Source of the DNA: Alphaproteobacteria bacterium | GTDB lineage: Bacteria; Pseudomonadota; Alphaproteobacteria; MPNO01; UBA830 | Reading direction: 5' to 3' | Length of the DNA: 64,000 nt | NCBI GenBank assembly: GCA_965243135.1 | Contig: OZ251539.1 | Coordinates: 4,768,001 to 4,832,000 of the forward strand | Part shown: piece after piece, positions 9,826 through 14,986 of the stretch | Layout: every line of letters begins with the position of its first letter | How positions within the stretch are numbered: position 1 is the stretch's first letter | Notes under the pieces: generated by a model | The model's input: the letters and a program-made list of their open reading frames with translations, nothing else | Told to the model about the DNA's origin: nothing | Database searches by the model: none | Made by a program: the position numbers and the translations under genes

Positions 9826-11238
9826 GTGAAACCGCACATTGAGAAGGCTGTTAGCGGGATGTCCATGCTACAAAGCATACTCGGCTCCGGGCGAAACGGA
9901 AGAAATCTTGGACCAAGCGGGTCATCTGTTTTCCCAAATATTAATGTTAACGGTATCGCCACCCAATTACGTGTCGATCAGAGGGGAGCACAGCGGGGCG
10001 TGAAGAACCAGCCCTCATCCCAAGATACCAGCTTTGATAAGGTCGAACATGAGATAGTCAATCAGGTCAAATCCATCAGAGATCAGGGGCTTAAAAATTG
10101 TGATGACCATGCCCGAGTGTATGATAAACGTATCACAGATGGCGTGGGAATGGAAATACAAATACGAAAGGTATGCGACACTACGCTAACTGATTTTCAA
10201 GCAGTGGTTGCAAAACATCAAGACGATCTCGATAAGGCGCACGAAGCGGAGCGACAAGCGGATGTCGCGCTTCAACAATTCCGTGATTATAATCGGATAA
10301 ATGATCCACCTTACGATGAAAATGGATTCCCTAAATGGTTTGCTATCTCTCTCGTTATCATAGCGGCAGAATCCGTATTGAATGGCGTTTTCTTCGCTAA
10401 AGCTCATGAGATGGGTCTGGCTGGGGGTATCGGAAACGCTTTAGCGATCTCGGTTGTCAACGTCGGGTTGGCAAGCCTTGCAGGCTTGGTGACCCGGAAC
10501 TTCAATCATGTTGAACCGTGGCGGAAAGTGATCGGTACGCTTTCGTTTTTGGGGGCAGCGGGTCTGGCGCTGCTGTTCAACTTCGTCGTTGCGCATTTCC
10601 GCGACGCCATGACGGCTGCGGCTTGGGACCAAGCCGCAGGGCGTGCGGTGGAGCGTGCAATCGCCGTTCATTTTCCCGAAAGTATTGACGCTTGGCTTCT
10701 TGCGTTACTGGGTTTGCTGGCGGCGGCTCTTGCCGGCTGGAAGACCTATGGTGCTGACCATCCTTATCCGGGTTATGGACGGATATCCAGAAAGAGGAAG
10801 GAAGCCTACGAAACCTACTACGATAAGCGGGAGACTGCGATCACCATCGTAACAGAAAAGAGAGATGAATTCAACAACAAGCTCTCCGCCGCAAACGCAA
10901 CAATTAACTCTGCCGCGCGGGCAAGAAGCGAGTACAAGTTGCTGCATAAGGAGCGAAGTTCATTTCTACAACAGTGCGATCAGGCAGTGAACGGATTGCT
11001 GACCCGTTATCGGAGCGCAAACCAATCGCAGCGCAGCCAGCGTCCACCGGAACATTTCAAAGAAGAGTATTACTTTCCGAAAATTCCGCCTCTGGACGAC
11101 TTGTCGTCGGCAATGCATTTGCCGGGTACCGGGCTTGAGGCAGTAGTCGGCGATTCGCTCCAAAAAATCCACTCAGCATGTGAGGATGCCATCAATGCCT
11201 TTCAAAAAGTTGACAAACGGGACAACCCGATGCCATGA
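9826..11238 (+). CDS. Hypothetical polytopic membrane protein with coiled-coil flanks (gene 1 of Zorya-like operon)
   Basis: 470 aa lower-GC ORF with about 4 central hydrophobic helices, a DHPYPGYG motif and helical N/C regions; start uncertain (GTG 9826 or ATG 9859/9865). Confidence 0.8.
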   Translation: MKPHIEKAVSGMSMLQSILGSGRNGRNLGPSGSSVFPNINVNGIATQLRVDQRGAQRGVKNQPSSQDTSFDKVEHEIVNQVKSIRDQGLKNCDDHARVYDKRITDGVGMEIQIRKVCDTTLTDFQAVVAKHQDDLDKAHEAERQADVALQQFRDYNRINDPPYDENGFPKWFAISLVIIAAESVLNGVFFAKAHEMGLAGGIGNALAISVVNVGLASLAGLVTRNFNHVEPWRKVIGTLSFLGAAGLALLFNFVVAHFRDAMTAAAWDQAAGRAVERAIAVHFPESIDAWLLALLGLLAAALAGWKTYGADHPYPGYGRISRKRKEAYETYYDKRETAITIVTEKRDEFNNKLSAANATINSAARARSEYKLLHKERSSFLQQCDQAVNGLLTRYRSANQSQRSQRPPEHFKEEYYFPKIPPLDDLSSAMHLPGTGLEAVVGDSLQKIHSACEDAINAFQKVDKRDNPMP

Positions 11239-12032
11239 GACGGGTTGGAAGGCGGCGTGAAAAGCGGCAGGCCGGTTGGTGGGCGCTTATCGTCGCCACG
11301 CTCGTCGGACTTGCCATAGTTGTCGTGCTCATTCGGGAGTTCCAGCCTCCCTCTATTGACAAGACGACCCTGTGCCCGAAAGAAACAGGACCTGTAGCGG
11401 GCGTCGTGATCCTGCTTGATCTCACTGACCCGCTCAGCCCGACCCAGCATGCCCGACTGCGCGGGATTCTCGAAGCGGCCCTTGCCGAGGCGGAGGCAAA
11501 TACGCTCTTCGCGGTGGGTGCGGTCAGGACCGATCCCACACGGCGTGGCGCGGAATTCAAGCTCTGCAAGCCGTTAGAAGGGAAAGAGGCGAACGAACTT
11601 TACCAGAATTCGCGTCTTGTCCAAGATCGTTACCGGAAAGAATTCAAACGTCCGCTGGACTCCGTGCTTGAGGAAATGCTGGCCGCCGAGGCCGCGAACC
11701 GCTCGCCGATCATGGAATCGTTGCAGGCTTTACTCGCGTCCACGCCCGGATTCCTCGATGCTGAATATCCTCGACGCGTCCTGATCGTTTCGGATCTGCT
11801 GCAACACAGCGCCGCGTTCAGTTTCTATCGTGGCGGAAGCTGGAGAACCTTCATACGGTCCTCGGAATCCCGGAGACAGGCAAGAAACATGACCGGAATT
11901 GACGTAGAGATTTATCGGATGCCGCGTTCGAATACGAAGATTGATATCGCTGATGTAGAAGACTTCTGGGTTAACTATTTTGATCGGGCGAATGTACAGA
12001 GCTTGTCCACTCGACCGCTTGGCGACCTGTGA
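11235..12032 (+). CDS. Membrane-anchored vWA-like protein (gene 2 of Zorya-like operon)
   Basis: N-terminal TM; VILLDLTDP (MIDAS-like strand), SPIMESL and RVLIVSDLLQHS resemble vWA elements; 4-nt overlaps at both ends. Confidence 0.65.
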   Translation: MRRVGRRREKRQAGWWALIVATLVGLAIVVVLIREFQPPSIDKTTLCPKETGPVAGVVILLDLTDPLSPTQHARLRGILEAALAEAEANTLFAVGAVRTDPTRRGAEFKLCKPLEGKEANELYQNSRLVQDRYRKEFKRPLDSVLEEMLAAEAANRSPIMESLQALLASTPGFLDAEYPRRVLIVSDLLQHSAAFSFYRGGSWRTFIRSSESRRQARNMTGIDVEIYRMPRSNTKIDIADVEDFWVNYFDRANVQSLSTRPLGDL

Positions 12033-13531: not shown

Positions 13532-13546
13532 CGGCTGAGTTACGCA

Positions 13547-14986
13547 ATGGCGCTGCCCTCTGGTACAGATTTTCCTAAGGAAACCCATTATCGACGCGGT
13601 GTGGTCATGGGATTGACTGTCGCGGAAGCGTTCATGCTCGTAGCCTTTATATTGATGATGACGCTTCTCTTCTGGCGCTTGGCGATCGAGGAAGAAACCA
13701 AAGGTCATGTTCGAGCAAAACAAATTTCTCTAGAGACTATCAATATACTGATCGAAAATCCAAAAATTGAACAACTTGTTCCGGCCATCGAGCATTTGCG
13801 GGAGGACACTCGACGCAAACTCGGCGATCTTGTTCGGCGTCCATATGCGAACGAGGCGGTAGCGGTTGCGCAAGGTTTATCGGAAGCCGACCTTGGTGCG
13901 TTGCGGCGTGGGGCGAAGCTTGTCGATCCGCAACGTTTTAAGGAGCTCAAGGACGCCGAGGAACTGGCGAAACGCTTCAAGGCGACGAGCCTCATGATCG
14001 AAAAGATCGAGGATCTTAAGGATGCACTGCGGCAGCGAAGCGTCGGGGAAATTGAGGACGCACTTGCAGTTATGAAGGGATTGTCTGAGGCTGACCGTCG
14101 TGAGTTGCGGCGCGGGGCAAAGCTTGTCGATCCACAACGTTTTAAGGAGCTCAAGGACGCCGAGGAACTGGCGAAACGCTTCAAGGCGACGAACCTTATG
14201 ATCGAAAAGATCGAGGGTCTTAAGGATGCGCTGCGGCAACGAAGCGTCGGGGAAATTGAGGATGCACTTGCAATTACTAGGGGATTGTCTGAGGCCGACC
14301 TTCGTGAGTTACGGCGTGGGGCGAAGCTTGTCAATCCGCAACGTCTTAAGGAGCTAGAGGACGCCGAGGAACTAGCGCAACGTTTGCACAGCCGACTTAC
14401 GGAGCTTCTTAACGAAGAAGATCGGGCGCGCAAGGATTTGGTCGACGAGCTCAAGCGGGATCTTGGGACCGAGATCCGGGTTGTCGGCGGGCGCATCGAC
14501 GAGTTCGACGGCACGATCACGTTTCCGGAAAACGCGCTTTTTTCATTGGGACGAGACGATATTCTGCCTCGTTTTTCCGATATATTGGACAAGATGTGCC
14601 CGATCTGGTTGAAAAAATTGAGGAAGTTTACGGATCGACGGGAAATCGAGGAAATTCTGATAGAAGGACATTCGTCTTCGGAATGGAATAACGCCCCGAC
14701 GAAACGGGACGCTTGGGTTCTGAATCTCGACCTCTCGCAACGCCGTGCACAGGCGGTTCTAGTGCATTGCCTGAAGCTGGTCGAAGGAACGCTGTCCGGG
14801 GAATGGTCTCGTGCAAAGTTGGCTGCAATCGGTTATTCTTCTTCGCGGCCGGTGTTGGAAAACGGCCGGGAAAGCCTGCGAAAGTCGCGGCGCGCTGTGT
14901 TCGGGATGCGGTTGAGCCGTGAGCAACTTCGGCAAGAAATCCTGAAAGAACTCCAGAAGGAAAACCGCGGTGACGTTGCCCGATAG
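13547..14986 (+). CDS. MotB/OmpA-family protein (ZorB-like) with internal repeats
   Basis: N-terminal [20 protein letters not shown]-terminal OmpA-like domain [11 protein letters not shown]...[12 protein letters not shown]...AIGYSSSRP...SRRAVF. Confidence 0.82.
13874..14385 (+). repeat. About 2.5 tandem copies of a 204-bp (68-aa) repeat in the ZorB-like gene
   Basis: GLSEAD...[22 protein letters not shown] units start at 13874, 14078 and 14282, near-identical at DNA level. Confidence 0.93.

Follow-up and report, generated by a model that had tools for sequence, protein, structure and literature searches.

We describe a widespread, unnamed membrane cassette that is built around a probable Zorya-type motor and belongs to none of Zorya types I to III. 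One copy, genes g1 to g4, lies in a 64,000-nt stretch of alphaproteobacterial DNA (the window; contig OZ251539.1, positions 4,768,001 to 4,832,000, assembly GCA_965243135.1; coordinates of g1 to g4 and their surroundings are window positions). At slightly better than even odds (∼0.55), we favor reading the cassette as an envelope conflict system, Zorya-like and ion-driven, that uses an exported nuclease and of which the window holds a truncated copy. The four genes are the following.

9826 to 11238, + strand: g1, 470 aa (457 aa from the ATG at 9865, M14)
11235 to 12032, + strand: g2, 265 aa; Arg-rich N-terminal tail, one transmembrane (TM) helix, predicted vWA-fold domain
12029 to 13531, + strand: g3, 500 aa; four TM helices (residues 2 to 138) and a ∼360-residue helical tail, predicted to be cytoplasmic
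13547 to 14986, + strand: g4, 479 aa; one TM helix with Glu27, long helical linker, ZorB-type OmpA-like peptidoglycan-binding domain (residues ∼284 to 470)

The genes are tightly packed: g1/g2 and g2/g3 each overlap by 4 nt, and 15 nt separate g3 from g4. GC content is 0.47 to 0.58 over positions 9500 to 15000 versus 0.63 to 0.74 in the flanks; the row has cobN upstream, with its end at 7023, and the genes for CobQ and then CbiX downstream. A first-pass annotation of this DNA had reported four linked, low-GC open reading frames (ORFs) with these overlaps and this gap inside the cob cluster, and we confirmed both its coordinates and the base composition.

A word-indexed set of 5.8 billion proteins contained 20 relatives of g1, none of them named; a genome query with their alignment located 161 places with g1 relatives in 185,579 species genomes. 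All locus counts given here rest on 80 of these 161 loci, whose ORFs were screened by tblastn and iterated hidden Markov models (HMMs). g1 and g2 are present at 80 of 80 loci each, g3 at 75, and g4 at 70, with order and strand constant. The first-pass annotation had looked to a survey of four-gene conservation; because the same order recurs at 70 of the 80 loci, the row is not a product of chance. At ten loci g4 is missing, and eight of these stop at a contig edge. At locus L079, no g4 follows g3; the g3 ortholog there (10253 to 11710) carries a ∼90-residue internal duplication in its tail. Two loci have g1 and g2 alone: L059 (7527 to 9761), where a fumarase-like gene comes directly after the pair, and L048 (6421 to 8628), as far as its contig reaches (it ends ∼600 bp past g2). 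These pairs without g3 and g4 suggest that g1-g2 is a separable core.

The hosts include Alphaproteobacteria (many of them Paracoccaceae), Gammaproteobacteria, Acidobacteriota, Latescibacterota, and others. Large plasmids from Rhizobium, Paracoccus, Sinorhizobium, and Microvirga, 22 in number, also carry the cassette; their annotations call one of its products an "OmpA family protein" and the other three hypothetical. No g1 relative turned up in phage records or among IMG/VR contigs. A g3 TM-domain profile, searched against 1.84 billion representatives, matched 3,135 clusters at E ≤ 1e-3. On plasmid pRL11 of Rhizobium johnstonii 3841 (L110, 285192 to 290347), a PBP1A gene lies directly upstream of the cassette, and genes for HipA-domain, WGR-domain, and zincin-like metallopeptidase proteins lie within 6 kb; the region looks mobile or conflict type. 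Among the Acidobacteriota loci L054 to L078, a 925-aa pyrroloquinoline quinone (PQQ) β-propeller gene ends ∼20 nt before g1 in 17 closely related loci (e.g., L076, 5257 to 8034), and a 950-aa ORF with no Pfam match is found further upstream in 15 loci (e.g., L070, 2585 to 5437).

The similarity to Zorya is clearest in g4, which had been read as a ZorB-like protein with an OmpA-like domain. PADLOC bears this out, returning ZorB2 (1.2e-31; residues 284 to 468) and ZorB1 (1.3e-26) within residues ∼284 to 470, and g4 contains EGHSSSEW and NLDLSQRR. The NCBIfam ZorB2 equivalog scores 81.5 bits, under its cut-off of 400, and Pfam OmpA scores 24 bits, just short of a cut-off (27.2) that the orthologs exceed. 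Conservation across the whole set of g4 orthologs is confined to the N-terminal helix, RRGxVMGLTxAExF, in which 69 of 70 copies keep Glu27. MotB, ExbD, TolR, and ZorB have an essential Asp at the matching position of their TM helices (PMC11946911). The conserved acid of g4 is Glu, not Asp as in ZorB (Asp26 in Escherichia coli); given its position, Glu27 is a putative functional analog of the ZorB Asp. The linker varies widely in length among orthologs of 255 to 606 aa, and in the window, a recent 204-nt duplication triples a 68-residue helical unit of it. Outside the alphaproteobacterial clade, for example in Acidobacteriota, a PxCW...CRFFV...FYK domain with no Pfam match takes the place of the OmpA-like one.

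In g3, the likeness to ZorA is structural. The AlphaFold2 (AF2) model has four TM helices, with predicted local distance difference test (pLDDT) scores of 85 to 97 over residues 1 to 140, and long helices after them. The first four helices (residues 2 to 26, 32 to 58, 72 to 98, and 108 to 138) are joined by short loops only, and the model leaves no room for the membrane-proximal cytoplasmic domain, with its β-hairpin and Ca2+ site, that ZorA has between TM1 and TM2 (PMC11946911). In a Foldseek search with g3, type II ZorA (chain 8vvi_C) is the third match, with a probability of 1.0 and a TM-score of 0.78 but an E value of 0.23. The protein has the motifs GDNxYYLGF(L/V)FTL and FGxALxSTIxGxxLRV; all 75 copies share D77, Y80, Y81, G83, F118, A121, T125, G128, and R132, and 74 of them have T87. 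T87 and T125 lie in helices that superpose on those of Thr147 and Ser184 in ZorA.

These features bear on whether there is a motor at all. Were g4 a plain OmpA-like anchor and g3 an unrelated four-helix coiled-coil protein, the cassette would be a static scaffold, and its likeness to ZorAB would reflect a shared simple architecture. We consider this unlikely. A Glu at the center of a single TM helix, retained in all but one of the copies, is a hallmark of 5:2 motors, as are the conserved Thr residues of g3 in the two helices that match the ZorA pore helices; and within g4, nothing but the N-terminal TM helix is kept across both types of C-terminal domain.

The first two genes encode the partners of this putative motor. 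g2 had been described as a TM-anchored, vWA-like protein, and structure prediction agrees: the AF2 model (pLDDT, 90.8) gave 49 Foldseek matches in the PDB at E ≤ 0.001 (best, 3e-5), and those listed are all vWA proteins (Ssl1/p44, Rpn10, Sec23/24, integrin I, and 4jdu). The model thus places g2 in the vWA fold superfamily, as a predicted member; a g2 profile run against PDB sequences found no match. Near-invariant residues are C47 (77/80), C111 (79/80), D62 (78/80), and D187 (77/80). D62-x-T64-D65 and S186-D187 appear to sit at the expected position of a metal ion-dependent adhesion site (MIDAS) and would form a MIDAS-like site. The vWA domain, anchored in the inner membrane, is probably periplasmic, because an Arg-rich tail precedes the helix and two Cys residues are near-invariant. 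Across 30 aligned orthologs, the TM segment of g2 has no conserved residue.

As proposed earlier, g1 is a polytopic membrane protein. Its four TM helices are flanked by helical arms, one of ∼165 aa at the N terminus, which has no signal peptide, and one of ∼150 aa at the C terminus. Its database form begins at M14 (position 9865). The TM region carries polar residues E182, N212, H257, R259, and P315 (P0001 numbering), each found in 80 of 80 orthologs. Searches of g1 against Pfam, NCBIfam, and PADLOC yielded nothing meaningful, a g1 profile had no match among PDB sequences, and an ESM Atlas search returned unnamed clusters only. Comparison with g3 and ZorA by hhalign also gave nothing, and no longer, fused forms of g1 turned up, which is weak evidence.

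A nuclease is a recurrent further part of the family. The first-pass annotation had pictured an all-membrane system with no nuclease, a view that does not hold: a staphylococcal nuclease (SNase) domain is fused or nearby at 28 of the 80 loci (12 of 37 non-redundant loci). In the alignment, several g4 orthologs have ∼150 extra C-terminal residues, and on these extensions, Pfam SNase (PF00565; cut-off, 21) scores 36 bits at L010 of Marivivens marinus, 22.9 at L011, and 17.2 at L002. An HMM built from seven g4 C-terminal tails found the domain fused to g4 at 13 loci and, within the DNA retrieved, as a separate downstream ORF at 15 more, several of them directly adjacent. Pfam confirmed three such ORFs (50 to 97 bits), and these three start with signal-peptide-like segments. 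On pRL11, the convergent neighbor of the cassette is annotated as a "thermonuclease family protein."

To relate the cassette to defense, 198 flanking ORFs (three per side) of the 37 non-redundant loci were scanned against PADLOC. Strong matches include a complete type I restriction-modification (RM) system directly upstream of the cassette at L010, a type II methyltransferase at L018, and Cas10 at L049. Further strong matches among the flanking ORFs, not assigned to a locus, are UzuA (6.5e-64), REase_II (4e-133), pAgo, SIR2, and MADS; QatC-like matches (L010 and L040) and a Shedu-domain protein (L046) are ambiguous. A defense role of the cassette is a plausible hypothesis.

Several results weigh against a Zorya-like conflict system. 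Most other neighbors of the cassette are metabolic; the association with defense genes is real at some loci, a minority, and modest, being a count without a matched control. The sequence of g3 is the other difficulty. The earlier description of g3 as ZorA/MotA-like stands for its predicted, ZorA-like TM fold and long helical tail; at the sequence level, the link to ZorA or MotA is not significant. A profile of the TM region only, run against PDB sequences, finds no motor protein, and hhalign of the TM domain with the ZorA N-terminal alignment gives a probability of 4.4%. NCBIfam antiphage_ZorA_1 scores 17.5 bits versus a cut-off of 190, and PF01618 (MotA_ExbB), over residues 74 to 131, scores 11.9 bits (E = 0.6) versus a cut-off of 22.9. 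The PF01618 score of g3 is the fourth best in the whole genome. PADLOC ZorA matches reach 5e-7 at best and fall mostly on the tail. With g3 residues 1 to 160, ESM Atlas returned a cluster (score, 0.86) in which 13% of members have MotA_ExbB, which serves as a lead only. A complex prediction of four g3(1-180) and two g4(1-60) chains scored 0.10 versus a mark of 0.32, with six chains where a true 5:2 complex needs seven. A Tol/Exb module was rejected on membership tests: PF01618 stays below its cut-off, and the cassette has no TonB or TolA partner.

The metabolic neighbors fit the main rival explanation, in which the cassette is a non-immune trans-envelope machine: a Tol/Ton-like motor driven by the proton motive force would pass force to the periplasmic vWA domain and position the nuclease for DNA scavenging, periplasmic DNA handling, or envelope or biofilm upkeep. 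We regard this as possible, on the less probable side of even. TM-tethered vWA proteins of unknown function, in the inner membrane beside 5:2 motors, have been proposed on computational grounds as force-transducing partners of TolQR-like motors (PMC12204202), and the cassette shares with these vWA force transducers and TPH-vWA proteins a vWA domain that is tethered by one TM helix and encoded beside a 5:2-motor-like pair. The PBP1A gene upstream on pRL11, the apparently stable retention of the cassette with the PQQ β-propeller gene in one acidobacterial clade, and its residence on large chromid-like plasmids rather than phages point the same way. The likeness has limits, however. The two vWA-transducer families of PMC12204202 have either an SHLS/His motor-binding motif in the TM helix or a transpore helix with a conserved Asp, and g2 has neither; their motors are TolQ/TolR-like, whereas that of the cassette is ZorAB-like with a tail; and they have no counterpart of g1 or SNase. 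Also against a non-immune machine are the patchy occurrence of the cassette among close relatives and its location, in the window, within a low-GC insert that also carries the remains of a toxin-antitoxin module, the RM, CRISPR, and other defense genes adjoining several loci, and the closeness of the g4 wall-binding domain to ZorB models. More broadly, MotAB, PomAB, ExbBD, and TolQR resemble the cassette in their presumed 5:2 ring-and-axle build and acidic axle-helix residue, with an OmpA-like anchor as in MotB; the cassette differs in having no flagellar, TonB, or TolA partner and in that g3 has a long tail instead of a torque or coupling domain.

The Zorya complexes themselves are the closest comparison. 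Type III Zorya has ZorF and ZorG as partners. The partners of types I and II are soluble, ZorC and ZorD in the former (PMC11946911) and ZorE in the latter (PMC11890865), and the ZorAB motor recruits the nucleases ZorD and ZorE, both of them soluble and cytoplasmic (PMC11946911, PMC11890865). Like Zorya ZorA5B2 (8QYD, 8VVI, and 8VVN), the cassette combines a polytopic subunit that has a very long helical tail, predicted to be cytoplasmic, with a single-TM subunit that has an acidic helix residue and a ZorB-type OmpA-like wall-binding domain. Polar Thr residues lie in two helices that would face the pore in the cassette. Both have a nuclease as recurrent partner, and a patchy distribution, often on mobile DNA. 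Unlike Zorya, the cassette has no ZorC/D, ZorE, or ZorF/G, and the membrane partners g1 and g2 always come first. Its nuclease, of the SNase type, is either exported or a fusion at the outer end of the ZorB-like subunit, whereas that of Zorya is cytoplasmic; its acidic residue is Glu rather than Asp; g3 has four TM helices without the membrane-proximal cytoplasmic domain and no significant sequence similarity to ZorA; and the cassette is known from sequence alone.

That a canonical Zorya system of type I, II, or III was simply misread is very unlikely. PADLOC does report ZorB2/ZorB1 on g4 and weak ZorA matches on g3, and these are the only points in its favor. The first-pass annotation had found that the partners fit no described Zorya type, and indeed none of the four proteins matches ZorC, ZorD, ZorE, ZorF, ZorG, or any PADLOC family other than ZorA and ZorB; no PADLOC model is matched by g1 or g2, and the cassette therefore has none of these Zorya partners. 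In addition, the cassette is flanked by cob genes, an alcohol dehydrogenase gene, and what is left of higBA; g3 and g4 score far under the cut-offs of NCBIfam ZorA and ZorB2; NF033914 has no match in the window's genome at E ≤ 1e-20; and g3 lacks the ZorA cytoplasmic domain. On these membership tests, Zorya types I to III were ruled out. We found no description of the cassette in the literature, supplementary files aside, which may list more Zorya-like clusters; PMC12505986 places Zorya far from other stators, and its accessible part does not mention this cassette.

For the envelope conflict system that we favor, the parts could work together as follows. g3 would be the counterpart of ZorA or MotA and build the ring; its pore would be lined by Thr87 and Thr125, and its helical tail would extend into the cytoplasm. 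g4 would be the axle: Glu27 would replace the proton-binding Asp of MotB, ExbD, and ZorB, and the OmpA-like domain would hold the complex on the cell wall. g1, with presumably cytoplasmic helical arms, and g2, with its probably periplasmic vWA domain, would be the family-specific partners, and the output module would be the exported staphylococcal-type nuclease, which g4 carries at its outer end or which a nearby gene supplies with a signal peptide. The vWA and wall-binding domains may sense disturbance of the envelope by the DNA machinery of a phage or of conjugation, outside the inner membrane. Ion flow through g3:g4 would then be switched on, and the wall-tethered nuclease, perhaps with g1, would attack the incoming DNA. 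The effector of such a Zorya-like conflict system would thus be located outside the cytoplasm. A bolder proposal, which we put forward tentatively and think doubtful as a whole, is that the cassette represents a fourth, mechanistically distinct form of Zorya-like immunity, in which a wall-anchored proton motor, a vWA sensor, and a four-helix partner deploy an extracytoplasmic nuclease that destroys phage or plasmid DNA before entry, with g1-g2 as an autonomous core that couples to different energizing or effector modules.

The copy in the window sits on a foreign 8.1-kb insert. Its further features are the following.

7024 to 15123, no strand: insert between cobN and cobQ, 8.1 kb, absent from same-genus genomes; contains a Zn-dependent alcohol dehydrogenase gene, a decayed higBA, and g1 to g4
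7474 to 8733, − strand: Zn-dependent alcohol dehydrogenase gene, inside the insert
9026 to 9556, + strand: higBA remnant, with higB frameshifted and higA intact
13886 to 14382, + strand: tandem duplication in the g4 linker, 204-nt unit, 2.4 copies, 90% matches
14993 to 15064, + strand: decayed SNase stub, in the g4 frame after two stop codons, ∼12 recognizable residues

From the end of cobN to the start of cobQ, the distance is 8.1 kb here versus 650 to 850 bp in three same-genus genomes; similarity to these relatives breaks off at ∼7021 and picks up again at ∼15133. A search of 24 other same-family genomes, four of the same genus among them, found no g1. The Zn-dependent alcohol dehydrogenase gene has a host-like GC content, and a stretch 70 to 78% identical to it occurs elsewhere in same-genus chromosomes, not here. 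The adjoining higBA module, noted before, is a decayed one. Its higA (9284 to 9556) is intact, with matches to HigA structures, whereas higB is split over two frames, its C-terminal half (9138 to 9281) matching HigB 4mct_B at 1.3e-6.

The right edge of the insert accounts for the missing nuclease. Searched by tblastn, the SNase tails of L002, L003, and L009 match 14912 to 15049 and 15011 to 15049, and the stub past the g4 stops matches the first strand of the SNase domain in these three loci; beyond the stub, the window's cassette copy has no SNase domain. cobQ starts near 15124 (likely ATG), not at 14989, and similarity to the relatives' CobQ runs from ∼15133; the ORF at 14989 to 16641 over-extends cobQ, and its first ∼45 codons overlap the stub. 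Since the stub lies in the g4 frame and homology to the relatives' cobQ region starts ∼70 nt beyond it, the SNase domain was cut off at the right edge of the insert. The window copy lost its nuclease domain there; it is therefore nuclease-less and possibly defunct. The "all-membrane" appearance is a property of this decayed copy, not of the family.

The window copy is a relic, truncated and stripped of its nuclease, on inserted foreign DNA, and intact relatives are better suited for experiments. The cassette is common and joins a Zorya-like motor to two new membrane partners and to an exported nuclease. If the role in defense is true, the site of action of such systems would shift to the envelope, and the cassette would offer a new, genetically simple model for how 5:2 motors sense invasion; if its role is not defense, it would represent a new use of the stator scaffold.

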